Shown piece by piece: positions 6,971 through 37,920 of a DNA stretch of 64,000 nucleotides. The DNA is taken from assembly GCA_030765485.1 (NCBI GenBank), contig JAVCCR010000032.1:166289-230288 (forward strand), given 5' to 3'. Within the stretch, counting starts at the first letter, position 1, and the number at the start of each line of letters is the position of its first letter. This DNA comes from Candidatus Gygaella obscura (lineage in GTDB: Bacteria > Omnitrophota > Gorgyraeia > Gygaellales > Gygaellaceae). Made by a program: the position numbers and the translations under genes. The notes beneath the pieces were generated by a model that saw only the letters and a list, made by a program, of their open reading frames with translations, made no database searches and was not told where the DNA came from.

Positions 6971-6972
6971 CA

Positions 6973-7908: not shown

Positions 7909-7931
7909 ATTTATAAGGTAAGGAGGTTTTA

Positions 7932-8672: not shown

Positions 8673-8679
8673 ATTTATA

Positions 8680-10027: not shown

Positions 10028-10054
10028 TAACACATTAAACAATTGGAGTTAAAA

Positions 10055-11143: not shown

Positions 11144-11152
11144 AAAAATGTA

Positions 11153-11935: not shown

Positions 11936-11940
11936 TTATT

Positions 11941-12504
11941 ATGAGATTTATCGAACAATTATCGAAAAGAATTAAACAGATTTTAAAAAATAACGGATTT
12001 AATTTTTCTCTTGTCAAAAGAGACAATTTATTAAAGCTTGTCACGCTTACGATTTTATTACTGGTTTTTGAAAATAGCTTCCTGGAATGGTTTAAAATTT
12101 TTGGCGTTAGGCCTAATCTTGCTTTATGCCTTATTGTTTTTTTAAGTTTTACTCAAGAGTCTGCGGTAGTTTTATTGGTTGTGCTTTTAGCTGGGATTAT
12201 TAAGGATAGTTTTTCCGGATTCATATTCGGATTAAACTTGATTACTTTTTTTTCTACAATGTTTTTATGCTTTGAGATAAAAAGAAGATTATTTGTGCAG
12301 AAAATCATTATATTTATCCTGGTCGCTTTATTGGGAATATGGATATCCTTTTTTATCTTTTGCTTTTATTCTTTTATTTATGAGTTAAATTATAATTTCT
12401 TTAGAGTGTTTTTTATGACGTTTATGGAGTCTTTGTATAGTTGTGCAGTATTTTATTTAATATTAAAATATTTAAGAAAATGCGTACCAGGTCTGTTTAT
12501 CTGA
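11941..12504 (+). CDS. mreD: Rod-shape-determining protein MreD (polytopic membrane protein)
   Basis: 187 aa, about 5 TM helices, in the canonical mreBCD position. The sequence is poorly conserved in general, so this call is positional. Confidence 0.55.
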   Translation: MRFIEQLSKRIKQILKNNGFNFSLVKRDNLLKLVTLTILLLVFENSFLEWFKIFGVRPNLALCLIVFLSFTQESAVVLLVVLLAGIIKDSFSGFIFGLNLITFFSTMFLCFEIKRRLFVQKIIIFILVALLGIWISFFIFCFYSFIYELNYNFFRVFFMTFMESLYSCAVFYLILKYLRKCVPGLFI

Positions 12505-15301: not shown

Positions 15302-15302
15302 A

Positions 15303-17064: not shown

Positions 17065-17093
17065 TTGACAAACAAAGGATTATGAAATATAGT
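17065..17093 (+). promoter_or_regulatory. Near-consensus sigma70 promoter (TTGACA-17-TATAGT) heading the T4P/c-di-GMP operon
   Basis: TTGACA at 17065-17070 and TATAGT at 17088-17093. AAGGAGG lies 7 nt before the ATG at 17131. This is the only intergenic gap of about 90 nt or more between rodA and the pilus genes. Confidence 0.5.
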
Positions 17094-17130: not shown

Positions 17131-18534
17131 ATGATTAAATTATTTAAAAAAACCTCTATTTCTTCCCGGGGCTTACGCAGTAAACTGGCTGTTGCTTTTG
17201 CTTTAACTTCGACTATTCCTATACTAATCAGCGTTTATTTATTAACACAAATTACTGATATCTCTAAATTGGATTCACGTATTGGTGTGTTTCTTTTTCT
17301 GAGTCTGGTAATTGCTGTTATCGGCTATTTTGTTTTAAATACTATAGTCAGCTCGATTATTAGAACCAGCAAAAAAGCCAATGCCTATATAAACGGAAAA
17401 ACCTTTGGAGGAATGAAAATTTCCACCGATGATGAGATTTCTGATTTGAATAAAGCTATTGATAAGCTTAACGACCGTATACGCGATAATATGGATAAGC
17501 TAAGTTTTTATGATAAACAAAGCAAGCTTGTAGGTATGGATTTAAACAAAAAAATCATTGCGCTTTCAAGTCTTTTACAGATTGGAAGTTTTATTTCTTC
17601 AACCAATAATATCGATGATATTTTTTCGTTGGTTGTCGGAAAGCTGGCCAATATTGAGTCTAGCTTCGAAGTTTTTTTATTTCTGCATAATAAAAGTAAT
17701 GAGTATACGCTTGATTTTGCATCTAACCAGGAAAAAATTAAATCAAATGTTTTTACCTTATCAACCGATTCAAGAAAAATCGTTCAGGCTATTTCTAGCA
17801 ATGAGCCTTTAAGGCTTGATGTTTCTCGTTCCGAATCAAAAACCCTGGAGCGATTGGGAGAAATATTCAATATCCGCAATATAGTTATCTTTCCTATCTT
17901 TGCCTGCGAGGAGACTAAAGGGATTCTTGTAGTAGGTAGCACTAAAGGAGATTATATTTTTGAAGCATCAGATATTGAGCTTATAAGACTATTTTCTAGA
18001 CAAGTTGCTATTTCACTTGAGAAGAATCAGCTTTTTACCAAGGCAAAAAAACTGGAAGTTAAAGACGGGTTAACTGGTTTATATAATGAGCATTTTATAC
18101 GCAGCCGTCTAGAGGAAGAGATAAAACGTGCATTTATTTCTCAGAGGCCGTGTTCTTTTGTTCTTTTGACTGTAGATAGGTTTCAGGATTATCAGCAGCG
18201 CAAGGGTCAGGATGGTGCGGAGAGTTCTTTAAAACATATCGCTACTTTATTAAAAGAATCTTCTCGCGAGATTGATAAACCAGGACGATTTGGATATTCT
18301 GATTTCGCGATACTGCTTCCTGAAATGAATAAAAAGGAAGCGATTGCTCTAGCGGAAGAGGTTAGACAAAAGGTGGCTTTTATTTTTAAGGAAGAGGAAG
18401 ATGTAAAACTTCGTTTGACAATTTCAGCTGCCGTAAGTGAGAATCCCATAGATGGAATAAAAGCAGAAGAATTGATTATACATGCAAGGAATCTTTTGGC
18501 TAATAAAAACTCAGATAATAAGGTTTTTCGCTGA
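17131..18534 (+). CDS. Membrane-anchored GAF-like / degenerate-GGDEF protein with RxxD I-site retained (putative c-di-GMP receptor)
   Basis: 467 aa with two N-terminal TM helices, a HAMP-like coiled coil and a GAF-like middle domain. The C-terminal GGDEF fold has the active-site motif changed to RFGYSDF, while the upstream REID (RxxD) keeps the canonical spacing. Confidence 0.7.
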   Translation: MIKLFKKTSISSRGLRSKLAVAFALTSTIPILISVYLLTQITDISKLDSRIGVFLFLSLVIAVIGYFVLNTIVSSIIRTSKKANAYINGKTFGGMKISTDDEISDLNKAIDKLNDRIRDNMDKLSFYDKQSKLVGMDLNKKIIALSSLLQIGSFISSTNNIDDIFSLVVGKLANIESSFEVFLFLHNKSNEYTLDFASNQEKIKSNVFTLSTDSRKIVQAISSNEPLRLDVSRSESKTLERLGEIFNIRNIVIFPIFACEETKGILVVGSTKGDYIFEASDIELIRLFSRQVAISLEKNQLFTKAKKLEVKDGLTGLYNEHFIRSRLEEEIKRAFISQRPCSFVLLTVDRFQDYQQRKGQDGAESSLKHIATLLKESSREIDKPGRFGYSDFAILLPEMNKKEAIALAEEVRQKVAFIFKEEEDVKLRLTISAAVSENPIDGIKAEELIIHARNLLANKNSDNKVFR

Positions 18535-18989: not shown

Positions 18990-20717
18990 ATGGCAACATT
19001 AAAAGAAAACCTAACTAATATTCTTATTGATAATAGCCTTATTACCCGTGAGAATTTAGAAAAAGCCATTTCTACCCAGAAACAACAAGGCGGCAGTCTT
19101 AGTCAAATTCTTATAGATTCTGGAAATGTAAAAGAAAAAGATCTAGTTATTGCCTTAAGTCAAGGTTTAGGTATTCCTCCTATTAATTTAAATAAAATCA
19201 AAGTTGATAAAAAAGTAGTTAAACTGATATCTAAAGATGTTGCGCAGCGTTATTTAATCCTGCCGATTTCTCAGGTTGGGACAACGTTAACTGTGGCTAT
19301 GGCTGATCCTTTGAACGTTTTTACACTGGATGATCTAAAGGTTCTTACGAATATGAAGATTAATCCTGTGATTACTACGGCTAATGATATCAAAGACGCT
19401 ATCAAGATTTATTATGAACAATCCCAGCAGGTGGATGGTGTTAAAATAGATGATATCATTAAGAATATTTCTTCTCCGGATATAGAGTTAGTTAATGATT
19501 CTGGCAAAACGGAAGAAAATATTAGTTTTATGCATATGATCGATGAGGCACCTATTGTAAAAATAACCAATAGGTTTCTTACTGATGCGGTTAAGCTTAG
19601 CGCAAGCGATATTTTGTTTGAGCCTTTTGAGAAGACAACCCGTGTAAGATGCAGGGTAGACGGCGCCTTAAGAGAAATCGAGACTCTGCCTAAGTATATG
19701 CATGAGGCCATAGTATCGCGTACCAAGGTAATTTCCGGGCTTGATATTTCCGAACATAGGCTTCCTCAGGATGGCCGTTTTAAGATAAAATTCCAGAGTC
19801 GGGAAGTCGATTTTAGAATTTCAATTCTGCCTTCTGTTTTCGGAGAAAAGGTTGCTTTGCGTGTTTTAGATAAAACAACTGCAATGCTTGATGTTGAAAA
19901 GCTTAATTTTTCCGACCATAATTTAAATACCATTAAACATTGTTCTTCTTTCCCGCATGGCATGATGCTTGTCTGTGGTCCTACGGGTTCGGGCAAGACC
20001 ACAACACTTTATTCAATTCTTAAATATGTGGATAGTCCTGAAAAAAATATTGTAACTGTAGAAGATCCTGTAGAATATCAGCTTAATGGAGTAAATCAGG
20101 TTACTTGTCGGATTGATATTGGTTTGACATTTGCTGCGGCCTTACGTTCAATATTAAGACAAGACCCTGATATTATTATGGTTGGTGAGATTAGAGATTT
20201 TGAGACTTTGGATATATCCATAAAATCAGCTCTTACAGGGCATATGGTTTTAAGTACACTTCATACTACTACTGCTTCTGGGTCTATAATTAGGATGTTG
20301 AATATGGGGGCAGAACCTTTTTTGATTACGTCCTGCGTAGTGGGTATTATTGCTCAAAGATTGGTGCGTAAGCTTTGTCCGAAATGTAAAGAATCATATA
20401 AGCCATCAAAGGCGGTTTTGGATACTTTAAGCATAAAAGACGATATTAATGAAAATGTTAATTTTTGTCGGCCTAAAGGTTGCCCGGAATGTTTTAATGT
20501 CGGGTACCGCGGAAGAATTGCTATTTGTGAAGTACTTGTATTAACCCATGAAGTAAAGGGTTTGATTTTAAAGCGGGCGCAGGAACATCAGATAAAAAAA
20601 ATGGCTAGGTCTCAAGGGATGCGTACGTTAAGAGAAGATGGGATAGATAAGATAATTACCGGATTAACTACACCAGAGGAAGTTTTAAAGGTAACCGCTT
20701 CAGACGCAAAGGCTTAA
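18990..20717 (+). CDS. pilB: Type IV pilus assembly ATPase PilB/GspE (paralogue 1)
   Basis: 575 aa with an N-terminal MshEN-like domain. Walker A GPTGSGKTT, Asp box VEDPVEYQL, Walker B DPDIIMVGEIRD, His box TGHMVLSTLHT, and a tetracysteine CPKC...CPEC zinc motif. Confidence 0.9.
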   Translation: MATLKENLTNILIDNSLITRENLEKAISTQKQQGGSLSQILIDSGNVKEKDLVIALSQGLGIPPINLNKIKVDKKVVKLISKDVAQRYLILPISQVGTTLTVAMADPLNVFTLDDLKVLTNMKINPVITTANDIKDAIKIYYEQSQQVDGVKIDDIIKNISSPDIELVNDSGKTEENISFMHMIDEAPIVKITNRFLTDAVKLSASDILFEPFEKTTRVRCRVDGALREIETLPKYMHEAIVSRTKVISGLDISEHRLPQDGRFKIKFQSREVDFRISILPSVFGEKVALRVLDKTTAMLDVEKLNFSDHNLNTIKHCSSFPHGMMLVCGPTGSGKTTTLYSILKYVDSPEKNIVTVEDPVEYQLNGVNQVTCRIDIGLTFAAALRSILRQDPDIIMVGEIRDFETLDISIKSALTGHMVLSTLHTTTASGSIIRMLNMGAEPFLITSCVVGIIAQRLVRKLCPKCKESYKPSKAVLDTLSIKDDINENVNFCRPKGCPECFNVGYRGRIAICEVLVLTHEVKGLILKRAQEHQIKKMARSQGMRTLREDGIDKIITGLTTPEEVLKVTASDAKA

Positions 20718-20721
20718 TAAT

Positions 20722-22443
20722 ATGGTTAAATCATTAAGAGATAAAATTCTTGATTTTTTACTTGAGGAAAAACGGATTACAAGAAGCGATATAGAGAGGT
20801 TTTCTAAGCTTCAGGAGCAAAGCAATCTTAAGATTGAAGCTATTTTGATTGATAATGCTATAATTTCTGCACAGGAGTATTTGTCTATGCTGGCAAAAGA
20901 AACTAATACTCCAGTAGTATGTCTTGAAAAAATAGATTGTGATCCGGAAATTTTAAATATTATTCCTGAAAGGATATGTCAGCAGTATAGTATTTTTCCT
21001 GTTGCAAAATTGGGGAATCTTTTAACTTTGGCTATGTCAGATCCAATGAATATTTTTGCTATGGATGATATAAAGTCTTTAACTTCTTTAGAAATCAATA
21101 CAATTTTAGCCAGCGAAGAAGATATTAAAAAGAATATACAGTTTTGGTATGAGGAGTCAAAGAATAAGGATATATCTGAACTTATCGGAGAAGTCAATGA
21201 AGATGAAATAAATGTAGTCGGAGAAGGAAAAAAGAGAGAATTTGAGGGCCAGTTTGATTTAGACAGAGCAATGCTTGAAGCTGAAAAGTCTCCTGTTATC
21301 AAACTTGTTAATCTTATGCTTTCAGAGTCATATCAGAAAAGGGCATCGGATATTCATATTGAACCAGAAGAGGATTTTTTAAGAGTTCGTTACAGAATTG
21401 ATGGAATGTTGCATGATGCTTATCAGATACCGAAAGATAAGCAGAATGCCGTAATTACACGTTTAAAAATAATGTCTAATTTGGATATTACGGAGTTCCG
21501 TATTCCTCAGGACGGTCGTTTTAAAATCCGTTTGGGTCAGAATGAAGTGGATTTCCGTGTTTCCATATTACCGATCAGTTTTGGGGAAAAGGTAGTTTTG
21601 CGTTTATTGGATAAACGTAATCTTTCGATTGGTTTGGAAAAGTTGGGGTTTTTAGCTGAGCCCATGCAGAAATTCAGAGATTGTATCAATAAACCTTATG
21701 GGATGATTCTTGTAACTGGTCCTACTGGTTCTGGTAAATCGACTACGCTTTATTCGATTATCAATCAGCTCAATACTCCTACGACGCATATAATTACTGT
21801 TGAGGACCCGGTAGAGTATCAGATCGAAGGTATAGCCCAGATTCCGGTTAAGCCGGATATTGGTCTTACGTTTTCAGCAGGTTTGAGAGCACTTTTGCGT
21901 CAGAGTCCTGATATTATATTAATTGGTGAGATTAGAGATTCTGAAACTGCAGATATTTCCGTTAAGGCATCTTTGACGGGGCAGATGGTTTTATCTACGT
22001 TACATACCAATGATGCCGCAGGGGCTATAACTCGACTTATTGATATGGGGGTAGAGCCGTTTTTGGTTTCTTCAAGTTTAATCATGACTTGTGCTCAGAG
22101 ATTAAGTAGAAAGATTTGTAGTAATTGCAAGGCAGAATATAAACCTGATCCGACTGTAGTGAAAAATCTGGGAATAAAATTAGAAAAAGGTTCAGTTCTT
22201 TATCACGGAAATGGATGTTCTCATTGTAATAATACAGGTTACCGTGGTAGAATAGGGACAATTGAAGTTTTGGTTATTGACGATAAGATTAGGGAGATGA
22301 TTATTGAAAGAGTTTCATCTGATGAAATCCGTGATTATGCTGTAACCCAGGGCATGGAGACATTGAGGGACAATGGCATTCGTCAGGCTCTCATAGGTTT
22401 AACTACCTTAGAAGAGGTTTTAAGGATAACCTCAGAGGAATAA
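20722..22443 (+). CDS. Type IV pilus/T2SS ATPase PilB/GspE (paralogue 2)
   Basis: 573 aa with the same architecture as paralogue 1 (GPTGSGKSTTLYS, VEDPVEYQI, TGQMVLSTLHT, CSNC...CSHC). Full-length, with an N-terminal T2SSE_N domain. It is not a PilT. Confidence 0.9.
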   Translation: MVKSLRDKILDFLLEEKRITRSDIERFSKLQEQSNLKIEAILIDNAIISAQEYLSMLAKETNTPVVCLEKIDCDPEILNIIPERICQQYSIFPVAKLGNLLTLAMSDPMNIFAMDDIKSLTSLEINTILASEEDIKKNIQFWYEESKNKDISELIGEVNEDEINVVGEGKKREFEGQFDLDRAMLEAEKSPVIKLVNLMLSESYQKRASDIHIEPEEDFLRVRYRIDGMLHDAYQIPKDKQNAVITRLKIMSNLDITEFRIPQDGRFKIRLGQNEVDFRVSILPISFGEKVVLRLLDKRNLSIGLEKLGFLAEPMQKFRDCINKPYGMILVTGPTGSGKSTTLYSIINQLNTPTTHIITVEDPVEYQIEGIAQIPVKPDIGLTFSAGLRALLRQSPDIILIGEIRDSETADISVKASLTGQMVLSTLHTNDAAGAITRLIDMGVEPFLVSSSLIMTCAQRLSRKICSNCKAEYKPDPTVVKNLGIKLEKGSVLYHGNGCSHCNNTGYRGRIGTIEVLVIDDKIREMIIERVSSDEIRDYAVTQGMETLRDNGIRQALIGLTTLEEVLRITSEE

Positions 22444-25400: not shown

Positions 25401-26608
25401 TTCTAAAATTCTTGCCTGAAGATAATGACCAGAAAAAAACCTTGATGGATAAGATTAGTAAGCTTTTAAAAGAAGAAGGGGCTTCGGAAGAAGAGTTGAA
25501 GTTTCTTACTCAGGAAGAATTCTGGCCAAAACTTGGATTTAGTGAAAAGATTATAGATTTTATGAATATGGCTTCAGATAGATATGTATATATTTCCAAC
25601 AAATACGGGTTTAATCCGGTTATGGAGTTTGCGCTTTCTTCAGAGACAGGAGAGGTTAAAAAAATACTTGAACGCTTGGTTTATTTTATTGAGTCGGATA
25701 GCTTAGAAGCAAAAAAGATAGCCAAGCAGGACCTTCTGTCCTTGATTGATCTGGTGTTTACTTATAAGAAAAGCGAATTTTTAGAATTGTTAATTAATAC
25801 ATTTATCGCTGAATTGCGCAAAGAGCATAATGAAGAAACTACCAGTATATTTATTAATCATATTGAAAAACTTACTTATGTTGTTTTTTCTATGGCAGCT
25901 TTTGATTTATTCTCCAAAGTAATTAATGAATTAAAAAAACTTGTTGCAGAAGATAACACTTCCGAAGATATGAAGGCAAATCTCAGTTTGGTTTTATCTC
26001 ATATTTGCTCAGATGAAATAGTTCAACGATTGATTGAAAGATTATTTAATTATGTTGATAGCAATGAGGATTATTCTCAAATTATTCAGATTTTTGTTGC
26101 CATCGGTAAGCAGGCAGCGAATAGATTGATTGATGAGGCAATGTTTGAGAAAAACATAAATGTTGTAGGTTATTTCGGCGGATACCTTAGAAGAAAGGCT
26201 GTCGGTAATATTTTAAATATGATGGATAAAAATGATGTTATGGAGTTTATAAAAAATAGACTTCAAAACGAGAAGTGGTTTATTGTACGCAATACAATTG
26301 ATTTAATTATGCATATAGATAATCCTGAGTATATTTTACTTCTTGGAATCGTGAAAGATAATAACGATTCGCGCGTAAGAAGAAAACTGCTTTTTGTTTT
26401 GGGTAGGTTTAAGAGCAAGCAGGCATTGGATATTTGTTATTCTCTGGCTAATGACCGTGATGATGCTATTGCTATGGGTTCGATAAAGCTGATTGCTTCT
26501 ATTGGAGATAAAGATTCTCTTGATTTTTTGAACAATTTATCTGTAAAACATTCCTTGCGTGATGAGAAAAATAAAGCTATTGAAGAGCTGAAAGAAAGGT
26601 TAAAATAA
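22445..26608 (+). CDS. Large multidomain signalling protein: GGDEF (RYAGDEF, I-site REQD) - AAA16/STAND-type P-loop NTPase - helical/HEAT-like repeats
   Basis: 1387 aa. Residues 1-175 form a GGDEF fold (DLDNFKGINDTLGHLAGD...RYAGDEF...KALYVSKRKGKN). Walker A is FGNSGIGKTR and Walker B is LCFVVDDLQWTDKASLDLL, the AAA_16/STAND signature. The C-terminal ~250 aa are HEAT/PBS-like repeats (DSRVRRKLLFVLGRF...NDRDDAIAMGSIKLIASIGD). It is translationally coupled to pilB2 upstream and to the MshEN gene downstream. Confidence 0.7.
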   Translation: MQKDLIIYIDELTELYNRRYLSQVFPKELKKAQEKNYSLWFFMMDLDNFKGINDTLGHLAGDDALKSLAVVLKKNMREQDILFRYAGDEFSAIIPGGTLSDVLAVAKRILENVARSSFGSNPMQPAMKFTVSIGISCFPEDAVDTLRLIDLADKALYVSKRKGKNHISVVSDVPPEVLSLYQILEKFPCPVFIDRVEELNQLFKATDEFIAHKKKKNIFIFGNSGIGKTRILHEYGKRISSKNISLIVSHANEKDIFTNYHIFIDGISDYFKTHSFQMELLEGLDDKAKSILVGFIPDLKRFVSVSDTELKNLSGKSIKDEEIKIIFKKFISNICKKHSLCFVVDDLQWTDKASLDLLKEFNSIEESLMVIAAVSNDYVVQKDNLVPLSDFITKHSLSFERLDVKPFEKEQAAKMVNAVFNSLDNLNEFTSLLFSVTKGSPLFIEELLKYFINRGFVFYRKGKWGWLDIRKEDLPSSIEEVVAQRIKSLSSELKEVITQASVIGEGFELNLLQKLGKKNQGYLMDLIETAKKSGLIREEKGAEGTRFVFTSAKVKDVLYGLADKNEIKNLNRQIGQIKEEIYKGNEDQVAGELYYRFKKAEDEKKATRYAKMVKEGRSFVYEKSIHFAKGLLEEVQVTEQEIPDKVIDGVSDIVRLIYVSQINSSLYPKGSSMRTQPLADLISKLKNIFEYVLVVSFSHFNEFLVVNNRIYDNESLKGTFRNAFIGLLKQNKIEKISFFPSLSVEELENFLELFESSEKEIFKNKFNQEEFANIKVEYLSYENYLSKRTKDREQLQDIMLLDYLLGKVPGEGIGGKMDILDKIQTHSQDIASALTKMADKVSKQKGVDKDSARADILSDNFKKISQHIFNKGEGAWDKYKKGLANTILSLEPNLRDEVLHKQLEEDKKNAALENNQSASDTSEEAVSFDNTDESTGNLKKDALKDQPQQDIIKALAGEFPEDVVLDLIKKEYKDGDNSPEQFKEIVLKFLPEDNDQKKTLMDKISKLLKEEGASEEELKFLTQEEFWPKLGFSEKIIDFMNMASDRYVYISNKYGFNPVMEFALSSETGEVKKILERLVYFIESDSLEAKKIAKQDLLSLIDLVFTYKKSEFLELLINTFIAELRKEHNEETTSIFINHIEKLTYVVFSMAAFDLFSKVINELKKLVAEDNTSEDMKANLSLVLSHICSDEIVQRLIERLFNYVDSNEDYSQIIQIFVAIGKQAANRLIDEAMFEKNINVVGYFGGYLRRKAVGNILNMMDKNDVMEFIKNRLQNEKWFIVRNTIDLIMHIDNPEYILLLGIVKDNNDSRVRRKLLFVLGRFKSKQALDICYSLANDRDDAIAMGSIKLIASIGDKDSLDFLNNLSVKHSLRDEKNKAIEELKERLK

Positions 26609-26610
26609 TA

Positions 26611-27081
26611 ATGCCTTTTAAAAGACAGTCGATATATAAGAAGCAATTATTGGGCCAGATTTTTTTAAAAAGCGGGATTATCTCTAAGGAGCAGCTTAAG
26701 GAAGCGCTTGAAACACAGAAAAAAGAGGGTGGGTTTTTAGGAAGCGTATTGATTAAGCTTGGTTATTTGACTGAGATGGATTTGGTTACAGGTTTGTCTA
26801 GCCAGTGCAGTATACCTTATTTGCCGCCTCAAAGATATAAAATACCGAAAAGTGTTTCTGAAATCATGACTGAGGATTTTTTAAGAGAGAATAGTTTTGT
26901 TCCTATTGATAAATTTCACGATACTCTGACAGTTTGTATGGTTAATCCTTTAAATGATCGGGCAATAAGCGAGATTTCACGAGTTAGCAATATGGAAGTT
27001 CTTGCCTGTATTGCCACAAAGGAAGAAATAGAAAAAACAATTAATAGCTTATTTAAGAAAAATTCTAAAAATGGATTGTAA
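26611..27081 (+). CDS. Standalone MshEN / T2SSE_N domain protein (second copy)
   Basis: 156 aa. LLGQIFLKSGIISKEQLKEALETQ is an excellent match to the MshEN c-di-GMP binding motif. Downstream is ...CSIPYLPPQRY..., as in GspE N-domains. Confidence 0.7.
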   Translation: MPFKRQSIYKKQLLGQIFLKSGIISKEQLKEALETQKKEGGFLGSVLIKLGYLTEMDLVTGLSSQCSIPYLPPQRYKIPKSVSEIMTEDFLRENSFVPIDKFHDTLTVCMVNPLNDRAISEISRVSNMEVLACIATKEEIEKTINSLFKKNSKNGL

Positions 27082-27143: not shown

Positions 27144-28349
27144 ATGCCACAATTTAAATATTACTCAAAAGACAAAAAAGGAGCTTCTGTAAATGGTATC
27201 CTTGAAGCGGAAAATAAAAACGTTGTAATTGAAGAATTAAGGCGTAGGCAGTTAACTATCATTACCTTAAAGGAAGTAAAGAAGGCCTTTAGTTTTGGTG
27301 GTAAGAAAAAGGTTTCTTCGGATGATTTGGTTATTTTCTCCCGTCAGTTAGCCACAATGGTAAATTCTGGCATACCGTTAGTTCAGTCTTTGGATATTCT
27401 AGGTGAACAACTTGATAATAAGCAATTCCGTTCGATAATTATGACTATTAGAGATGATATACAGACAGGTCTTAGCTTATCCGGTGCGTTTGCAAAACAC
27501 CCCAGTGTTTTTTCTACACTTTACATAAACATGGTAAAAGCTGGGGAGACTTCTGGTATGCTTGATGAGATTTTAGATCGGCTTGCTATCTACTTGGAAA
27601 AGTCCAATTCTTTAAAAAAGAAGATAATGGCAGCTATGATTTATCCTGCTTTGGTTTTTAGTATGGCGATAATAATCACTTCCGGTCTTTTGATTTTCGT
27701 TGTCCCTCAGTTTAAATCGATTTTTAGTTCTTTTGGCGGCAAACTTCCATTACCTACGGTTATTTTAATCGCTATAAGTGATAATTTTGCAAAGATTATA
27801 CCTTCTTTGATTGTGCTAATAATTATTACTGCGGTTGTATTTTCCCGGGTCATTAAAACTCCGAAAGGAAGATTCAAATTTGATCAGTTTAAGCTAAAAG
27901 TGTTTATTTTCGGTAAGATGTTTCAGATGGTGGCAGTAAGTAGGTTTTCTAGGACATTATCTACGTTAGTCAGAAGCGGCGTTTCTATTTTAACTGCCTT
28001 AGATATAGTTTCTAAAACAACGGGAAATAAAGTTATTGAACAGGCATTGGATAATGTAGGTGCTAATATAAAAGAAGGTAAATCCATTGCTTTGCCTTTG
28101 GCTGAGGCTAAGGTTTTTCCTCCTATGGTTGTAAGGATGATTTCTGTAGGTGAGCAGTCAGGAGAGTTAGAAAAGATGCTTACTAAGATCTCTGATTTTT
28201 ATGATGAACAGGTGGATATTGCCGTATCTGGACTTTCCAGCGTAATAGAGCCTGTAATTATTATATTTTTAGGTCTTGTTATTGGCTCAATCGTTATTGC
28301 CATATTCTTGCCGATATTGAAGATGTCTTCTCTTGTCGGAGGAATGTAA
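27144..28349 (+). CDS. pilC: Type IV pilus platform protein PilC (GspF family)
   Basis: 401 aa with two GspF repeats and 3 TM segments. Characteristic blocks are SRQLATMVNSGIPLVQSL and MISVGEQSGELEKML. Confidence 0.9.
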   Translation: MPQFKYYSKDKKGASVNGILEAENKNVVIEELRRRQLTIITLKEVKKAFSFGGKKKVSSDDLVIFSRQLATMVNSGIPLVQSLDILGEQLDNKQFRSIIMTIRDDIQTGLSLSGAFAKHPSVFSTLYINMVKAGETSGMLDEILDRLAIYLEKSNSLKKKIMAAMIYPALVFSMAIIITSGLLIFVVPQFKSIFSSFGGKLPLPTVILIAISDNFAKIIPSLIVLIIITAVVFSRVIKTPKGRFKFDQFKLKVFIFGKMFQMVAVSRFSRTLSTLVRSGVSILTALDIVSKTTGNKVIEQALDNVGANIKEGKSIALPLAEAKVFPPMVVRMISVGEQSGELEKMLTKISDFYDEQVDIAVSGLSSVIEPVIIIFLGLVIGSIVIAIFLPILKMSSLVGGM

Positions 28350-29442: not shown

Positions 29443-29452
29443 AAAGGAAATG

Positions 29453-32038
29453 ATTATGAAAAATAAAAAAGGTATTGCTATTATTGTAACATATTCTATC
29501 CTTGTGCTTTTGTTGATGCTTTCTGCCGCGTTTATGTATCAGGGTATAAACGCCAATTATTTAACTAAAAAAAAGCTTACTAATAATACTGCGCGTGCAA
29601 ATGCAGAAAAAGGTATTGCTTATGTTTTAAGGGAGCTTTCTTTTAATTCTGATTTGATAACGCATACGGTTAATGCTTCTACAGATGTCTTAGAGAGTGC
29701 TGATCTTACTGCGACTCTTAAATTGCCCAATACTGCTATTTTAAATGATGCCCAACTTGATATAGACGGTTGTTACTTTGGTTATGGAAGTTCTGTTAGC
29801 GATGTTCTATTTAGGGTAAAAACATATCATAAGCCAGGTTCAGAAGGTGATACAGTGGTTGTAAGTCAAGGTATAGACGCAGGTCATACTGTTTATCTGG
29901 CTTCGACTATAAGCTCTACGAGTCTTTATGATTATTTTATGTTTTTTCAAGGGAATCAGTCTTTTGGTTGGGGAAGTAATTTTGATGGGAAAGGTTTAGG
30001 AAGAATTTTTGTTAACGGCAATGCTTATTTTACTCAGGGTAAGATTACCGATGCTGCAGAATTTGCTGTTGCAAAGGATATAAAGATTCCCGCGAGTACT
30101 TATAATACGCCTGCTAGGTTAGACTCAATTGATGGAACAACAGATAATAAGGCTCCGTTACCTACTCTATATGTAGATATGGATTGTGGTAGTATTGCAA
30201 GTGATCCTGCGTTGAAACAAGTCGCGTTTGACAATATTCATTATAATGATGCTAGTGATTGGCCGCCACCTTACATGACAATGACTACGGAAGCACGAAA
30301 GGCGATTTATAACGAAATCCATGATTTTAACGGAGATGGTAATGTAAATAAACTTGATTATGTTTACATCCCGGATAAGACCGATGAAACAAAATCTTTA
30401 CCTTGGAAAGCAGATGGTTATGTTTATAACGAATGGTTGCCCGCAGGTAGTTATATCAGGGACTGGAAAGATGTAGATAACCATTTTTATATACCTTCAA
30501 ATTTTTATAAGCAGTTTATTTTTACTGCTGAAGGAAGTGGGACTACTGCAGATTATTCATTTAATCTTCCTAGTACAGGCAGTACACCTGCTTTTGCAAC
30601 GAGTTGGGATTGGCAGATGTATAATACAAGCGAGCCATATCCTTTAACCTGGCAGGCTTATGATTATGAAACAGGCGCAGTGGTGGACGTTGCGAATAAT
30701 TTTAGTGATGAAGGATACTGGAAAAATATTCTAAGGGCCTTAGAGGATACTGGTAATCTTAGTGATATTGATAAAGCCGATATTGAAAATTACGCCTGGG
30801 CTTATGGAAGTAATACAACAGTAAGCGTTAATTATTTGGATACTGCCGTACAATCTCTAGAATGGAATGGTTGGCTTGAAAGCACAACTATGGCTTTGGA
30901 TTCCGGAGATACTTTAAAATTGTCTGATGTTGTTAAAACCAATGAAGGTATTATTAATCCTCCTGAGGTAGCAGAGTATTATGCTACATTAGCCCAGGAT
31001 CCTACCGTGGGTATTTATATTGATCCAGATGAGATTATTGCAGGAAGTTCTGCTGATCCTAAAGTTCAGGCTTTAATTGATGAAAGTTGCATTACAATGA
31101 CACAATTCTATAATAATTATAATCCTGTTGTTGATACAACTACAACAAAAGATCCCGATACAACCAATGATATTACATTTCCTGAACCGGCAGTAAAAGT
31201 TGATGTTGCCTGTGTAAAGGCTTTATCTGACTCAGGTGAATCTTTTAAGGCAAATGTGATTTATGTAAAGCCTGCGATAAAAAGTGTTGCCGGTCAATTA
31301 GTAGATAATTCTCCTTCTGGCACAAATAAAGATATACCTATAAGTAGTCTTCTTGTTAATGGTGAAAGTATTCCCGATGGGGGCATGACTTTTGTAGCAC
31401 CTTATCCAGTTTATGTAAAGTCAGATTTTAATATTTCCGATCCTCAGCCAGCATCCATTATAACGAATTCTAACTACTATGTTTTATCTGATCAATATCA
31501 GGATTATGGTACAGAAAGACGTACATCACTCAATAAACCTGCGACAACCTGTACAGGTGAATTTACTGATCCCAGTTGTGATGGGCCTCAGCATCTGCCC
31601 GGTCTTAGATATTCAACTGACGGTTATTCAAATCCGCTTGAGTATCCATATGAAACTCCGGAACATACTATTTTTGCGGGAAAGAACAATCCACCTGTTG
31701 CTGCAGAAAATAAAATGGGTGATATAACACAAAGGGTATCAGTTGTTATTCCCGGAGGTCTTTATACTTCGATTGAAAACGGCTATGGTTCAACAGTTAG
31801 TATAATCGGTTCGAGAATAGAAGTAGATTCATGGACAAGTGAAAGTAGTAGGCTTGGGTATTATGATCGCAGTAGGGTAAGCCCTGGTGGTGTTAGTACA
31901 TACTATGGTGCTAGCGTTGTCCGGGATTATGATGAAATGTTACTGACAAGTAAGCCCCCGGGAGATTTTAGCGGTACAGCAAGTGAGCTGATGGTTGAGG
32001 TAACAGCAGATGATTTCTTGAAGAACACGAAATTCTAA
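29453..32038 (+). CDS. Large PilX-N-like pilus-associated protein with EF-hand/dockerin-like Ca-binding loop (putative tip adhesin, PilY1-like role)
   Basis: About 860 aa. The N-terminus KKGIAIIVTYSILVLLLMLSAAFM resembles the PilX_N minor-pilin anchor. There is a DFNGDGNVNKLDY loop (nt ~30323-30361). The protein is Gly/Thr/Asn/Asp-rich with no other recognisable family. Confidence 0.45.
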   Translation: MMKNKKGIAIIVTYSILVLLLMLSAAFMYQGINANYLTKKKLTNNTARANAEKGIAYVLRELSFNSDLITHTVNASTDVLESADLTATLKLPNTAILNDAQLDIDGCYFGYGSSVSDVLFRVKTYHKPGSEGDTVVVSQGIDAGHTVYLASTISSTSLYDYFMFFQGNQSFGWGSNFDGKGLGRIFVNGNAYFTQGKITDAAEFAVAKDIKIPASTYNTPARLDSIDGTTDNKAPLPTLYVDMDCGSIASDPALKQVAFDNIHYNDASDWPPPYMTMTTEARKAIYNEIHDFNGDGNVNKLDYVYIPDKTDETKSLPWKADGYVYNEWLPAGSYIRDWKDVDNHFYIPSNFYKQFIFTAEGSGTTADYSFNLPSTGSTPAFATSWDWQMYNTSEPYPLTWQAYDYETGAVVDVANNFSDEGYWKNILRALEDTGNLSDIDKADIENYAWAYGSNTTVSVNYLDTAVQSLEWNGWLESTTMALDSGDTLKLSDVVKTNEGIINPPEVAEYYATLAQDPTVGIYIDPDEIIAGSSADPKVQALIDESCITMTQFYNNYNPVVDTTTTKDPDTTNDITFPEPAVKVDVACVKALSDSGESFKANVIYVKPAIKSVAGQLVDNSPSGTNKDIPISSLLVNGESIPDGGMTFVAPYPVYVKSDFNISDPQPASIITNSNYYVLSDQYQDYGTERRTSLNKPATTCTGEFTDPSCDGPQHLPGLRYSTDGYSNPLEYPYETPEHTIFAGKNNPPVAAENKMGDITQRVSVVIPGGLYTSIENGYGSTVSIIGSRIEVDSWTSESSRLGYYDRSRVSPGGVSTYYGASVVRDYDEMLLTSKPPGDFSGTASELMVEVTADDFLKNTKF

Positions 32039-33677: not shown

Positions 33678-35211
33678 TAAAAGAATAAAATTAGTTTTAA
33701 TTTTTTTATTTATTTTTAGTTTCTGCAACTTTACACTTTACGGTGAAGAGCCGTCTATGATTGAGCCTTTATCTGATGAGTATCAGATGGCCTTTGAGCA
33801 AATATCCCAAGAAAAACCACAGCAAGAGATTAAACAAGAGTCTAAAGAAGAGCCTATTGCTATTGAAGCAGGCCGGTCTTTTAACGGAGAAAATACTATA
33901 GATGAAGATTTTGTGAATCTGGCCTTTGATAATGCTGATATCCGCGATGTTATTAAGGTATTGGCTGCGAAAAGCGATATGAATATTATCGTTGGAGAAG
34001 ACGTAAAGGCTAATGTTACCATGAAGCTTAAGGATGTTATCTGGGAGTCGGCCTTAGAATTAATTCTAAACACGTATAATCTTACTTATCAAAAAGAAGG
34101 CAATCTTATAAGAGTTATGACTTTAACTGAGGCAGAAGAGGTAGCGAAGAAAGTACCTATGATTACAAAGATTATTCCTCTTAATTTTGCTCAGACTGCG
34201 GAGATGTCAGCATCGATTGCAAAGATGCTTTCTGCAAGAGGTTCTGTTCAGGAAAATAGCCGTACTAATACGCTGATTATTACTGATATTCCTTCGCGCG
34301 TAAGGATGATGGAAGAGACTATTGAAAAACTTGATACGCCTACGCCGCAGGTTTTAATTAATGTGTTGATTGTCGATATTACTTTAACCGACAGTGATGA
34401 TTTAGGTGTTGACTGGCAGGCAATTACTACAAATCAGCTTGCAGATCTTTCTTCTGCTAATAGATCGAAGACAGCTACATTAACACAGCCCAGCAACATG
34501 TCTTCAACCGGAGGACCGGCATTTACGCTAGCGCTTGTTAAAAAATTCGGCGAAGCTGATTTCACCGCTAATCTACAGGCATGGATTGAAAATAAAGAAG
34601 CAAAGGTTTTAGCAAATCCAAGGATTTTGACGCTTGATAACCAGGAAGCAAAGATTGAGATAATAAATCAATTTCCTTATTTGCAGACTTCCAGTTCAAG
34701 TGATGGCGGTACTACATCGGGAACTGAATATAAGAATATTGGAACAAGTCTTAGCGTTACTGCGCATATTACTAATGATGGGCATATAACTTTGAATCTA
34801 AAACCTTCTCAGGATATAAATGCTGGAAGTGATTCTACTACAGGTGCACCAATAGTTGATACACGTTCAGCGGAAACAAACGTGTTGGTAAGAGATGGCC
34901 AGACTGTTGCTTTAGGCGGTTTAAGGCGCGTTGATAGGGCTACAACTGTTAATAAAGTTCCTATTTTAGGAGATATCCCCTTTATTGGTAAAATATTCCA
35001 GAATAGACAGATTGATGATAAAGATGTTGAGTTGGTGATGTTTGTCACGCCTTATATAATTAAGGATGCTGGAATTAGCGAAGAGGAAAAAATATTTATA
35101 GAAGCAAATCTTCCTGGTCCGCAGAGGCCGTTTTCCCGGAATAGTCCTTTTCTTCTGGAAGAAAAATACGATTTAAGACCTCCTGTAAAAAAAATTAAAG
35201 GGAATTGGTAA
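33667..35211 (+). CDS. pilQ: Type IV pilus secretin PilQ
   Basis: Signal peptide and N0/secretin_N domains. The C-terminal secretin block is GGLRRVDRATTVNKVPILGDIPFIGKIFQNRQIDDKDVELVMFVTPYII. Confidence 0.9.
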   Translation: MVSSKRIKLVLIFLFIFSFCNFTLYGEEPSMIEPLSDEYQMAFEQISQEKPQQEIKQESKEEPIAIEAGRSFNGENTIDEDFVNLAFDNADIRDVIKVLAAKSDMNIIVGEDVKANVTMKLKDVIWESALELILNTYNLTYQKEGNLIRVMTLTEAEEVAKKVPMITKIIPLNFAQTAEMSASIAKMLSARGSVQENSRTNTLIITDIPSRVRMMEETIEKLDTPTPQVLINVLIVDITLTDSDDLGVDWQAITTNQLADLSSANRSKTATLTQPSNMSSTGGPAFTLALVKKFGEADFTANLQAWIENKEAKVLANPRILTLDNQEAKIEIINQFPYLQTSSSSDGGTTSGTEYKNIGTSLSVTAHITNDGHITLNLKPSQDINAGSDSTTGAPIVDTRSAETNVLVRDGQTVALGGLRRVDRATTVNKVPILGDIPFIGKIFQNRQIDDKDVELVMFVTPYIIKDAGISEEEKIFIEANLPGPQRPFSRNSPFLLEEKYDLRPPVKKIKGNW

Positions 35212-36854
35212 TGAGAAGAAAGCTTCCATTTGTTTTTGCACTTTTATTTTCCATTTCTTTTTTAAATTGTTCCTTTGTTAAAGCAGAGTATTCTCTTATT
35301 GGTGAAGAGGGATTGATTTGGAAGAAAAGCGTCGACGGCATAAAAGATGCAGTAAGAGATTTGCTTGCAGAGAATAAGAATTTAAAGCAGCAGATCGATT
35401 TAAGATCTCTTGAGATGCATAAGCTAAATGAAGTTCTTAAGGCTTTGCAGGATAAAAACGACACGTTGGAAAAGAAGATTGAATCAATGGATCTTAAGGT
35501 TACATTAAATAGCAAAGTCAAATCTCTTACCCGGAGAAATGAATCTTTAAAAGGGCTAAAAGGCTCGTTAGAAGTGGAGGTTAAACAGCTAAGGGCAAAT
35601 AATATAAAATTAAAAAAAGATTCCGATGTTTTGGAGAAAGAGGTTAGTTCTTTAGGTAAAAGATTCGAAATCACTCAAACCCAGCTTGAGGAATTAAAGG
35701 ATTCGTATATAAATTTTAAACAAAAGTCAGTTGATTATGAGAAAGAGTTAGAAGGAAAGTTGATAAATCTACAATCAGAAAATAAAAGGTCATCTGGAGC
35801 TATCCAGGATAACGAGAAATTAGCTGTTCAGCTTCGAGATTTAAAAGAAGAAAAGATTGATCTTCTAAGTCAGCTTAAGACTACAAAAGAGCAGTTTAAG
35901 AATATCGATTCATTAAGTCAGAAGATTGTTGATTTACAGAATGAAAAGCAAAGATTATCCGATAGTTTAGAAAATTCTCGAATTGAAATTGAGGAGCTGA
36001 AAAAAACTCTGGAAGAAAAAGACAATTTTATAGATTCCAATAAAAATGAACTTAAAAAGATTGAATTGCTCTCAAATGAATTATCTAAAGCCGAGAAGGA
36101 AAAGTTAGGTTTTAAAGATGAAATTGTTTCTCTTAAGATACAGTTAAATGAATCCAACAATAAATTAGAGATTTCTGAAAAAGAGATAGAGGTTTTAAGC
36201 GAATCTTTCAATAAATTCAAGCAAAAATCTATTGAAAATCAAGAAAAACTAATTGAAACACAAAAAGAAAACACCAACCTAGGAAGCAGAATCGCTCCTT
36301 TAAAAAATCAACTTGATAATTTACAGGAAAAACTCGTAATTTTAGAAAAAGAAAAAGACTTGGCTTTAAGAAAATCCGTTGTTGTAAATGATGCAGATAA
36401 GGCTAAAAAGGTTAAAAGAATTCCTGTTTATTTAAAAGAGCAGGTTGAAGATAAAAGTAGCACAATACCTAAAGTTATAAAATTAAGGGCATTTCAACAA
36501 GCAGAAAAAAAACTTAACAGCTTACAAAAGCTTGATTTAGGTATTATTGAAGTCATGCTAAGTAACGCTTATAATTACGCTAATAATAATCAGATAAGCC
36601 TAGCATCTCGGGAATATAGAAAGGTTTTAGATCTTGATTCTAAGAATAAAGATGCGCTTTTTAATCTTGGTGTTGTTTATTTAAATAATCATAATGTTAA
36701 ACATGCGATTGCTAATTTTGAGAAACTTGTAGAATTAGATCCAAATGATGCGCAGGCTTTGTATAACCTTGCTTTATGTTACAGTAAGATGCATAATAAA
36801 AAGCAAACCGAATTTTATTATTTAAAATACCTGGAACTTGAAAATGACTCTTGA
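35211..36854 (+). CDS. Secreted long coiled-coil protein with C-terminal TPR repeats (FimV/PilF-like candidate)
   Basis: Signal peptide MRRKLPFVFALLFSISFLNCSFVKA, then about 400 aa of continuous heptad coiled coil (ELKK..., LQNEKQRL...), then 2-3 TPR motifs (ALFNLGVVYL..., AQALYNLALCYSKM...). Confidence 0.45.
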   Translation: MRRKLPFVFALLFSISFLNCSFVKAEYSLIGEEGLIWKKSVDGIKDAVRDLLAENKNLKQQIDLRSLEMHKLNEVLKALQDKNDTLEKKIESMDLKVTLNSKVKSLTRRNESLKGLKGSLEVEVKQLRANNIKLKKDSDVLEKEVSSLGKRFEITQTQLEELKDSYINFKQKSVDYEKELEGKLINLQSENKRSSGAIQDNEKLAVQLRDLKEEKIDLLSQLKTTKEQFKNIDSLSQKIVDLQNEKQRLSDSLENSRIEIEELKKTLEEKDNFIDSNKNELKKIELLSNELSKAEKEKLGFKDEIVSLKIQLNESNNKLEISEKEIEVLSESFNKFKQKSIENQEKLIETQKENTNLGSRIAPLKNQLDNLQEKLVILEKEKDLALRKSVVVNDADKAKKVKRIPVYLKEQVEDKSSTIPKVIKLRAFQQAEKKLNSLQKLDLGIIEVMLSNAYNYANNNQISLASREYRKVLDLDSKNKDALFNLGVVYLNNHNVKHAIANFEKLVELDPNDAQALYNLALCYSKMHNKKQTEFYYLKYLELENDS

Positions 36855-37920
36855 TCAAAAAGGCTTTTTAGGAATAAAGAGTAGTTTTTTTAAGAAAAAA
36901 GAAAAAAGTTTTGTTGGAATTGATATTGGTTCATCAAATCTTAAAATTGTAAGGCTTGCCCCGAATAAAGAAACTAAGAAAATCCAGTTAACTGATTTTG
37001 CGAATATAGCTTTTGAGGAACAGGTTTCTAGTGACCAGATAAAAAAGGCATTAGAGGAGGCATTACGCCAAACCAATATTTCCAAAGATAGCGATGTGGT
37101 TTTTAATATCCCCAATAACTCTGCGATAACCCGTTATGTTGTGATGCCGAAAATGAACCATGATGATTTAAGAAAGGCTATTGGGTATGAGCTGGAGAAA
37201 TATATTGCTTTTGATACAAAAGAAGCCGTTTACGACTTCCGTATTTTAGAAAACGCACAAGTAAAAGAAGGACATTTGAAGGTCCTTTTGGTTATTACTA
37301 AAAAGGAAACTGTTGATGAAAGGGTGAAGGCAATCGAGGATGTAGGGTTTATTCCTAAGGTGGTGAGTATTGATTCAGTTGTGATTTCTAATACATTTTA
37401 TCTTAATCATGCTGATAAAAAGGATAAGAATATCGCTATTGTAAATCTTGGTTCAAGGCTTTGTAGTATAAGTGTTGTAAGGGGCGGTATCTCCAATTTT
37501 ATGCGTGATATCGCTGTTGGCATAGAAAATATCGTAAGTCTGGTTTCGGAAAAGCTAGAGATGAATAAGGCCGATATCTTAAATTCTATATTAAAGCCGG
37601 AACTTCAGTCGAAAGAGTTTAAAGATATAATAAATTCTGTACTTTCAAATCTATTAAATGAACTTTACCTTTCTTTTGATTATTACGAAACGCAGTTTGA
37701 GACTTCTATCGATGAAATTTATATAACCGGTGGACTTTCGCAACAGCCGGGATTAATAGAATTTTTATCCAATAATCTAGGTATAACGGTAAATAAGCTT
37801 AATCCTTTACAGAACCTTGATATGTCAGTCGATTTGAGGTCGAAGCTTGATTCGAAGAAGGATATTATGGCTGTAAGCATAGGTCTTGCCTTAGAAGATT
37901 CCGATTTAAAATATTTTTAA
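36844..37920 (+). CDS. pilM: Type IV pilus assembly protein PilM (actin-like)
   Basis: FVGIDIGSSNLKIVRL phosphate-1 motif with a PilM/FtsA-like fold. ATG 36844 is the likely start; the ORF track gives TTG 36838. Confidence 0.85.
   Translation: MTLDQKGFLGIKSSFFKKKEKSFVGIDIGSSNLKIVRLAPNKETKKIQLTDFANIAFEEQVSSDQIKKALEEALRQTNISKDSDVVFNIPNNSAITRYVVMPKMNHDDLRKAIGYELEKYIAFDTKEAVYDFRILENAQVKEGHLKVLLVITKKETVDERVKAIEDVGFIPKVVSIDSVVISNTFYLNHADKKDKNIAIVNLGSRLCSISVVRGGISNFMRDIAVGIENIVSLVSEKLEMNKADILNSILKPELQSKEFKDIINSVLSNLLNELYLSFDYYETQFETSIDEIYITGGLSQQPGLIEFLSNNLGITVNKLNPLQNLDMSVDLRSKLDSKKDIMAVSIGLALEDSDLKYF

Follow-up and report, generated by a model that had tools for sequence, protein, structure and literature searches.

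The MshEN domain is one of only three widespread receptor domains for cyclic di-GMP (c-di-GMP) and, to our knowledge, nearly all its characterized forms make up the N-terminal part of a secretion ATPase or a glycosyltransferase. What, then, does such a domain do when it is encoded by a gene of its own? This question is raised by a 64,000-nucleotide (nt) stretch of contig JAVCCR010000032.1 (hereafter the window) from a metagenome-assembled genome (MAG) of Candidatus Gygaella obscura. This organism belongs to the phylum Omnitrophota, which comprises largely uncultured nanobacteria thought to need pili for host contact. Within a type IV pilus gene cluster of this AT-rich window (GC content 0.358), an open reading frame (ORF) encodes a protein of 156 amino acids (aa), here called MshEN2, whose exact sequence is deposited at NCBI as 'hypothetical protein P9L96_06705'. 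Further upstream lie the genes of a second free-standing MshEN protein, MshEN1, and of two pilus assembly ATPases, PilB1 and PilB2 (Table 1). We consider it somewhat better than an even chance that MshEN2 is a stand-alone c-di-GMP receptor specific to the type IV pilus machine and acting in trans for two PilB proteins that have themselves become blind to the ligand.

MshEN2 is a complete MshEN domain

Profile searches placed two adjoining models on MshEN2. Pfam MshEN (PF05157) matched residues 67-149 (E=5.5e-14; 52.4 bits, cutoff 23.1), and the NCBIfam model NF053729, 'c-di-GMP_motif', matched residues 14-65 over profile positions 2-53 of 53 (58.8 bits, cutoff 38). When the four MshEN-bearing proteins of the window were ranked with NF053729, MshEN2 came first, followed by MshEN1 (55.2 bits), PilB1 (44.2 bits) and PilB2 (24.2 bits). 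Sequence matches in the PDB were PilF, Geobacter PilB and the N-domain of MshE (5HTL, E=2e-12). MshEN2 has no match to the T2SSE ATPase domain (PF00437), its chain ending at residue 156, and a search for the PilZ domain (PF07238, E<=0.01) returned no match either. The PilB model TIGR02538 aligned at profile positions 2-141 only, with 62.7 bits against a cutoff of 675.65.

The predicted fold agrees with this assignment. An AlphaFold2 model built on 16 homologues (predicted local distance difference test score 86.4, predicted template modeling (TM) score 0.76) shows a four-helix bundle (helices 8-20, 26-39, 43-49 and 55-65) and, C-terminal to it, an alpha/beta subdomain of three strands with flanking helices. 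Foldseek superimposed the model on MshE with bound c-di-GMP (5HTL) with TM scores of 0.75/0.82 and a root mean square deviation of 2.2-2.3 Å over ~135 columns. Further fold matches included PilF GSPII-A, the PilF GSPII-B complexes (8PDK, 8PE0), XpsE-N and Xanthomonas PilB-N, as well as 9G1W, 2D28 and 7LKM; the match to PilF GSPII-B had an E-value of ~1e-8 at a sequence identity of ~24%. By sequence, motif spacing and fold, MshEN2 is a member of the MshEN family and neither an ATPase nor a PilZ protein. A preliminary description of the window, drawn from its letters and ORFs, had recognized the same 156-aa ORF on the forward strand, read it as an MshEN domain with the best motif match in the window, and proposed a profile search and a structural overlay as checks. 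The ORF is present as described, the NF053729 ranking bears out the motif claim, and both checks support a complete domain.

Both binding motifs are retained, with hydrophobic residues in place of the stacking arginines

The c-di-GMP-binding signature of the family consists of two 24-residue motifs at a spacing of 5 residues, with L/G at positions 2-3, G at position 10, L at positions 17 and 21 and Q at position 24. MshEN2 carries both motifs, at residues 13-36 and 42-65, joined by the linker KKEGG, and the residues of the signature are conserved in 13 orthologues. A strict MshEN motif regular expression, applied to all six frames of the window, gave exactly two matches, both in MshEN2 and 29 residues apart (24 + 5), while the same expression gave one match in 300 codon-shuffled windows. 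The peptide singled out in the preliminary description, LLGQIFLKSGIISKEQLKEALETQ, corresponds to residues 13-36; its reading of the first motif was right, and it had missed that the motif is repeated in tandem and that position 1 lacks an arginine in both copies.

As phmmer aligned MshEN2 residues 12-114 to MshE residues 8-110 without gaps, the contacts of MshE could be transferred position by position. The two Leu triangles of MshE (L10, L25, L29, L39, L54, L58) correspond to L14, L29, L33, L43, L58 and L62 of MshEN2, the glycines whose backbone amides contact guanine O6/N7 (G11, G40) to G15 and G44, the glycine at motif position 10 (G18) to G22, and the ribose-phosphate contacts (Q32, Q61) to Q36 and Q65. 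Thus, all 11 non-Arg contact residues (L10, G11, G18, L25, L29, Q32, L39, G40, L54, L58 and Q61 in MshE) are retained in the window protein, and the contact residues are invariant or conservatively hydrophobic in the 13 MshEN2 orthologues. The arginines responsible for cation-pi stacking, R9 and R38, are replaced by L13 and F42, and D108, the sole contact from the C-terminal subdomain MshEN_C, by N112. Outside the motifs, K10 and K11 directly before motif I are invariant in the MshEN2 family, as are D100, D104, N112-P113-L114 and I134-A135-T136 in the C-terminal subdomain.

The absent arginines, the single defining feature of the family that MshEN2 lacks, lower strict motif membership but likely not its function, because published data on PilF GSPII-B show that leucine can occupy position 1 without harm and even to advantage (PMC11731258). 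PilF GSPII-B naturally carries K167 and L196 at position 1 and binds c-di-GMP far more tightly than MshE; changing K167 or L196 back to Arg weakened binding, and the K167L variant, with Leu at both position 1 sites, had a dissociation constant of 2 nM, with the introduced leucine stacking on the guanine in the crystal structure, as the natural L196 does (PMC11731258). Given that a hydrophobic/hydrophobic pair at position 1 is the natural state of MshEN2 and that K10-K11 before motif I are invariant, it is plausible that MshEN2 binds c-di-GMP, possibly very tightly.

The free-standing proteins retain ligand-contact residues that are degenerate in the PilB ATPases

The four MshEN-bearing proteins of the window represent four orthologous groups, with identities of 54-64% within and 28-40% between groups; for MshEN1 and MshEN2 the values are 59-64% within and 39% between. 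Judging from these alignments, MshEN1 and MshEN2 are ancient free-standing paralogues. The preliminary description had noted two diverged copies and suggested distinct partners for them, an idea that fits their membership of separate ancient groups.

We aligned the four groups, taken from 8-13 genomes, to MshE and compared the contact residues, given here in MshE numbering; the PilB N-termini came from the window (18990-19190 and 20722-20920) and from L001, L003-L006 and L008-L010. Throughout both free-standing groups, G11, G40, Q32 and Q61 were invariant and the six Leu positions stayed hydrophobic. Position 1 of the two motifs was L (R, M in two) and F, V or I, respectively, in MshEN2 (13 genomes), and Q (H in one) and L in MshEN1 (8 genomes). 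All eight PilB1 sequences had exchanged G11 for T, M or K, G40 for S and Q61 for G or S, keeping Q32, and position 1 was R or N in the first motif and R, S or E in the second. PilB2 likewise kept Q32 and had L, V or I at G11 (9/9), E at Q61 (9/9) and E or D at G40 (8/9, with one sequence keeping G40); its position 1 was K or R and K, S or G.

Several of these positions have been mutated in characterized proteins. In MshE, G11L abolished detectable binding, G40I lowered it 72-fold and Q61A 12-fold, and XpsE lost c-di-GMP binding with changes including G11V, G40L and Q61V (PMC5013675). By analogy with these mutants, the substitutions in the N-domains of PilB1 and PilB2 probably weaken or abolish c-di-GMP binding. 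Within the same genomes, then, the alignments place the ligand contacts under selection in the small proteins and show them decayed in the ATPases. No other evidence speaks as strongly for c-di-GMP binding by the small proteins and for a reliance of the ATPases on them. The preliminary description had suggested that stand-alone MshEN proteins act as diffusible c-di-GMP adaptors, and this idea is strengthened by a point that it had not raised, the loss of key Gly/Gln residues of the binding site in both PilBs.

The MshEN1 family is large: it comprised 2066 clusters, of which the best 120 were all 140-221 aa long and carried PF05157 only, the named ones all being from Omnitrophota. Outside this phylum, the same pairing occurs in two unrelated lineages, represented by loci L020 (a metagenome contig, GC 0.68, 4896-9660) and L019 (GC 0.45, 835-2291). 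There, the gene of a free-standing MshEN protein that keeps intact motifs (215 aa in L020, 178 aa in L019) immediately precedes a pilB gene whose product has degenerate motifs, the gene order in L020 being PilT-MshEN-PilB-PilC-PilS.

MshEN2 is conserved as a separate gene upstream of pilC

All 16 close MshEN2 homologues (44-81% identity) were 151-158 aa long and had PF05157 as their only domain. We further compared 24 loci with downstream DNA: the window itself, another 12 from genomes and 11 from metagenomes. In every one of them, across identities of 37% to 81%, MshEN2 was a separate ORF with its own stop codon and with pilC directly downstream. The preliminary description had taken the protein to be free-standing, which homologues fused to an ATPase would have contradicted, and neither the homologues nor the loci contained such a fusion. 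Compared with the 81%-identical orthologue of the closest relative (L004), the ratio of nonsynonymous to synonymous substitution rates (dN/dS) was ~0.04, an approximate value given that dS was near saturation, and similar to those of PilB and PilC. MshEN2 is under strong purifying selection.

Between the window and L004, MshEN2 was the most diverged soluble component of the cluster, with 81% identity versus 95% for MshEN1, 94% for PilB2 and 93% for PilC. Word-indexed searches returned 16 homologues of MshEN2 versus 2066 of MshEN1.

We also considered a programmed fusion of MshEN2 with the upstream gene, by frameshifting or read-through, and rejected it. The reading frame of MshEN2 relative to the upstream gene varies among genomes, so that no conserved hidden fusion is possible.

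The pilus gene cluster and its GGDEF proteins

The genes around MshEN2 follow the conserved order [GAF-]GGDEF(degenerate)–MshEN1–PilB1–PilB2–[REC-GGEEF]–[AGDEF-STAND-HEAT]–MshEN2–PilC–pilins–PilN/O/P/Q–TPR protein–PilM, in which brackets mark optional parts. The features of the window are compiled in Table 1.

Table 1. MshEN2, its subdivisions and the pilus-cluster genes discussed here, in window coordinates
Feature	Position	Strand	Evidence and remarks
GAF-GGDEF protein	17131..18534	+	first gene of the module; degenerate site GYSDF
MshEN1, other free-standing paralogue, 149 aa	18537..18986	+	directly upstream of PilB1; Gly/Gln contacts intact
PilB1 assembly ATPase	18990..20717	+	T2SSE 442 bits, TIGR02538 638 bits
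PilB2 assembly ATPase	20722..22443	+	NF053729 below the 38-bit cutoff (24.2 bits)
GGDEF (AGDEF, I-site RxxD)-AAA_16 STAND-HEAT protein, 1387 aa	22445..26608	+	optional module member
Shine-Dalgarno-like AAAGG	26595..26599	+	11 nt 5' of the MshEN2 ATG, within the end of the upstream gene; read from the sequence
MshEN2, free-standing MshEN protein, 156 aa	26611..27081	+	ORF (ATG at 26611, stop codon ending at 27081) with PF05157 and NF053729 matches
c-di-GMP motif I, residues L13-Q36 (MshE R9-Q32)	26647..26718	+	phmmer to 5HTL, regular expression, family alignment; position 1 Leu
Linker KKEGG, 5 residues between the motifs	26719..26733	+	K37, G40 and G41 invariant in the family
c-di-GMP motif II, residues F42-Q65 (MshE R38-Q61)	26734..26805	+	position 1 Phe; F/V/I in relatives
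C-terminal alpha/beta subdomain (MshEN_C / T2SSE_N1), residues 67-149	26809..27057	+	PF05157 and AlphaFold2 model
PilC platform protein	27144..28349	+	T2SSF 225 bits; invariant downstream neighbor of MshEN2
PilM, actin-like platform protein	36838..37920	+	PilM_2 E=1e-40

In the window, 2 nt separate the TAA codon (26606-26608) of the gene encoding the GGDEF-AAA_16-HEAT protein (hereafter the STAND protein) from the start of MshEN2, and translational coupling of the two genes via the AAAGG sequence is possible. The gap between the end of MshEN2 and pilC measures 62 nt. The STAND gene lies directly upstream of MshEN2 in ~13 loci and is absent from at least six (L008, L010, the P0036 contig, L030, L031 and L032), in which PilB2 abuts MshEN2; the invariant link of MshEN2 is therefore to pilC and PilB2. 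Accordingly, of the placement given in the preliminary description, between the STAND gene and pilC, the pilC side holds in 24 of 24 loci and the STAND side does not hold throughout.

The AGDEF motif and the RxxD I-site of the STAND protein are invariant in eight orthologues, and it is possible that this protein makes or senses c-di-GMP locally. In the GAF-GGDEF protein of the window the motif reads GYSDF, and all orthologues have a degenerate site, in varying forms. An extra, canonical REC-GGEEF cyclase, which the window lacks, is encoded between PilB2 and the STAND gene in several relatives.

A promoter and terminator scan of 16.9-28.5 kb yielded counts equal to the shuffled expectation. No terminator was found from the GAF-GGDEF gene to pilC. 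A promoter-like site at 17065-17093 matched 11/12 positions, but sites of this class were not enriched over shuffles; promoter-like matches in the 62-nt gap before pilC reached only 9/12. These results are consistent with a single operon, though they are no evidence for one.

Some further observations concern the surroundings of the cluster. The pilus cluster (17131-37920) lies directly downstream of mreB-mreC-mreD-pbp2-rodA (10043-17036) on the same strand, with an intervening radical-SAM gene in the window, and this linkage of cell-shape and pilus genes recurs in L003, L008, L010, L031 and the P0036 contig, all from distant Omnitrophota. Two N-methyl (pilin-like) genes are followed by an 862-aa ORF (29450-32038) without a Pfam match, which is 49% identical to its counterpart in L004 and was undetected in the other loci; its product may be a pilus-associated or tip protein that evolves fast. 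The gene at 35205-36854, located between pilQ and pilM, encodes a 549-aa protein with a coiled coil and C-terminal TPR, and L001-L003 have a gene for 500-530 aa in the same slot between the secretin and PilM genes, without a Pfam match.

Proposed role of MshEN2 and alternative explanations

How might a free-standing MshEN protein act on the pilus machine? In the scheme that we propose, the four-helix bundle with its two tandem motifs would clamp one c-di-GMP between the two Leu triangles. The Gly backbone amides and Gln side chains would contact the nucleotide, and L13/F42 would take the place of the stacking arginines. The affinity would probably be high, as in PilF GSPII-B, which reaches the low-nanomolar range with hydrophobic residues at position 1. 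By analogy, the C-terminal subdomain of MshEN2 is likely a protein-docking surface; homologous subdomains bind GspL/EpsL in type II secretion systems (4PHT, 2BH1; weak fold matches) or PilZ in Xanthomonas (7LKM), and the PilM-binding part of PilF is homologous as well. Through this T2SSE_N1-like part, c-di-GMP-loaded MshEN2 would attach to the pilus machine from the cytoplasmic side, where PilC, PilM and the N-terminal ring of PilB2 may offer docking sites. PilM is a candidate partner by analogy with the GspE-N1/GspL and PilF-N/PilM pairs (PMC12002112, PMC8389850). MshEN2 would thereby supply in trans a c-di-GMP control that the PilB ATPases, their own Gly/Gln residues lost, would no longer exert, and MshEN1 would probably do likewise for PilB1. 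The adjoining STAND protein or, in relatives, the REC-GGEEF cyclase could be the local source of the second messenger. Binding of c-di-GMP and its strength, the partner on which MshEN2 docks and the sign of its effect on pilus assembly are all inferred from the sequence, the predicted fold and the known relatives.

Several points weigh against this proposal. Wang et al. 2016 gave a relaxed motif that requires [RKPN] at position 1, and this has no match in the window, MshEN2 included. PilF GSPII-A is a non-binder even when the consensus is restored, which has been traced to an N-capped helix alpha-1 and to subdomain contacts (PMC12002112); a near-consensus motif is no guarantee of c-di-GMP binding, and sequence alone cannot decide the matter. 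The N-domain of PilB1 passes the NF053729 cutoff (44.2 versus 38 bits), and the loss of binding is argued from single residues. The local source of c-di-GMP is uncertain, because neither GGDEF protein of the cluster in the window has a canonical active site, and the adjacency of MshEN2 and pilC is circumstantial as a sign of partnership.

In a first alternative to a receptor, which we consider unlikely, MshEN2 would be a c-di-GMP-independent structural or assembly cofactor, a detached extra N-domain that helps PilB dock on PilM or PilC, in the manner of XpsE-N, Xanthomonas PilB-N or PilF GSPII-A. The loss of both stacking arginines, with the relaxed motif unmatched, and the example of GSPII-A speak for it, and ATPases with up to seven MshEN stretches are common, so that extra modules may be structural. 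Yet all 11 non-Arg contacts are kept in the window, the Gly/Gln residues do not vary among 13 genomes, the most distant at 37% identity, and a hydrophobic position 1 improves binding in PilF GSPII-B. Moreover, these positions decay freely in the N-domains of the PilBs from those genomes, and such selective conservation in the small protein would be difficult to account for if no ligand were bound. At the far end of the scale, the view of MshEN2 as a pseudogene fragment, the N-terminal remnant of a disrupted GspE/PilB gene, is refuted and retains next to no probability. It could draw on the fact that the best whole-protein models are PilB/GspE N-termini (TIGR02538), on the name 'PilB' given by JGI to some homologues, on one short database match that is a contig-end fragment (P0139), and on true remnants such as the 60-aa pilB fragment of the P. 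thiaminolyticus reference strain. It is contradicted by the uniform length of all 16 close homologues, by the separate ORF followed by pilC in all 24 loci and by the low dN/dS; in addition, the 62 nt before pilC leave too little room for an ATPase-coding remnant, and two intact PilB genes lie nearby.

The remaining two alternatives accept an MshEN receptor and give it another task. MshEN2 might work with the STAND protein instead of the pilus motor, either sensing that protein's product or serving as its feedback subunit, or as an adaptor that passes on the output of a STAND signaling hub. The closely spaced stop and start codons, the adjacency in ~13 loci, the invariant AGDEF motif and I-site and the joining of MshEN and HEAT repeats in a single Myxococcus xanthus protein, FrgA (PMC5013675 Suppl. 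Table 4), which hints at a functional link, fit this idea. We nevertheless rate it as rather improbable: MshEN2 persists between PilB2 and pilC in the loci without the STAND gene, and its adjacency to pilC has no exception. A search for MshEN fusions with the C-terminal 768 aa of the STAND protein gave only two matches in a set of 5.8 billion proteins, neither with PF05157. Finally, an abundant high-affinity binder near the pilus base could act as a c-di-GMP sink or buffer without any specific protein contact. A small single-domain protein with the high affinity predicted from Leu and Phe at position 1 would suit such a role, but the C-terminal subdomain is strongly conserved although only one of its residues contacts the ligand, and the 53-residue N-subdomain, which binds alone (PMC5013675), would suffice; we therefore give this explanation very little weight.

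Occurrence of free-standing MshEN proteins and implications

In a representative library, ~43 of the top 150 matches were 142-200 aa long, an upper bound for free-standing proteins given that P0139 is a contig-end fragment. NCBI labels the Omnitrophota proteins of 140-220 aa 'hypothetical protein', and JGI frequently calls them 'type IV pilus assembly protein PilB', though they have no ATPase domain. Other non-ATPase architectures were seen among the nearest relatives as well, comprising MshEN with PilZ, MshEN with a cNMP-binding domain, and two or three tandem MshEN domains only (P0116, 288 aa; L014:3124-4452, 442 aa, from a Hydrogenedentota MAG; P0021, P0030 and P0033). The metagenomic protein P0106 (454 aa) combines MshEN at residues 68-152 with a bacterial DnaA AAA+ domain at 209-368 (E=1e-65) and, from this domain order, looks like a DnaA-like ATPase in which a c-di-GMP receptor domain replaces the usual N-terminus.

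The domain family itself is known; what is new here is an Arg-less free-standing MshEN protein paired in trans with motors that appear ligand-blind, its function being proposed from sequence and structure comparison. An intact free-standing MshEN beside ruined ATPase sites amounts to a natural experiment that separates sensing from docking. Our model predicts that MshEN2 binds c-di-GMP with nanomolar affinity although the arginines are gone, that PilB1 and PilB2 do not bind it, and that MshEN2 docks on PilB2, PilC or PilM in a c-di-GMP-dependent manner; it also bears on pilus regulation in Omnitrophota. The locus further flags a systematic annotation problem, with more than 2000 protein clusters labeled 'hypothetical' or 'PilB'.

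A broader proposal can be put forward only tentatively, with the chances leaning against it as a whole. In Omnitrophota and at least two other uncultured lineages, c-di-GMP control of the pilus may be split, such that Arg-less, probably nanomolar MshEN adaptors, once loaded with ligand, act as detachable N-terminal modules, two paralogues serve two PilBs in which the ligand-blind MshEN domains remain as sites for docking, and c-di-GMP selects the motor that engages PilC/PilM. Were this split design true, it would account for thousands of database entries called 'hypothetical' or misnamed 'PilB'.

Comparison with known c-di-GMP receptor systems

The architecture table of the founding MshEN paper lists fusions to ATPase, glycosyltransferase, REC, HD-GYP, kinase and HEAT domains, together with PA3740, and contains no plain free-standing MshEN (PMC5013675). 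Full-text literature searches returned no study of a free-standing MshEN and no description of this Omnitrophota module. The closest structural reference is V. cholerae MshE (5HTL), which shares with MshEN2 the two-subdomain fold, the tandem 24-residue motifs with a 5-residue linker and the Leu/Gly/Gln contacts, and whose setting, the control of type IV pilus assembly, is the one proposed for MshEN2. It differs in that the domain is the N-terminus of the ATPase polypeptide itself and in having R9, R38 and D108 where MshEN2 has L13, F42 and N112. At position 1, T. thermophilus PilF GSPII-B (8PDK; K167L variant 8PE0) is nearer to MshEN2, being non-Arg there, and K167L matches its hydrophobic/hydrophobic arrangement. 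GSPII-B, however, is one of three tandem domains in cis with the ATPase, whereas the Omnitrophota equivalents are separate polypeptides.

With respect to domain composition, MshEN2 can be likened, by description, to P. aeruginosa PA3740, a non-ATPase that is essentially an MshEN module and for which c-di-GMP binding and an influence on surface motility have been reported (PMC5013675). In contrast to MshEN2, with its 52-bit PF05157 match, PA3740 has a highly diverged C-subdomain, and it is found in beta- and gamma-proteobacteria.

The proposed division of labor has its parallel in the PilB-PilZ-FimX system of Xanthomonas and Pseudomonas, where the N-domain of PilB is without motifs and c-di-GMP is sensed in trans by docked proteins (PMC8389850). 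This system resembles the logic suggested for MshEN2 in combining an MshEN-fold PilB N-domain that lacks the motifs with control in trans, yet its sensor is an EAL protein bridged by a non-binding PilZ, and no homology to MshEN2 is implied. The GGDEF genes located immediately upstream of each free-standing MshEN gene recall the NfrB-DgcJ pair of E. coli, in which the diguanylate cyclase serving an MshEN receptor is specific to it and physically associated with it (PMC8669469). There, the MshEN domain is fused to a glycosyltransferase; the GGDEF sites of the window are non-canonical. The likeness of MshEN2 to single-domain PilZ adaptors is functional only, that of a small c-di-GMP adaptor acting in trans; if the split design proves true, free-standing MshEN proteins would form a distinct class of single-domain c-di-GMP adaptors comparable to stand-alone PilZ.

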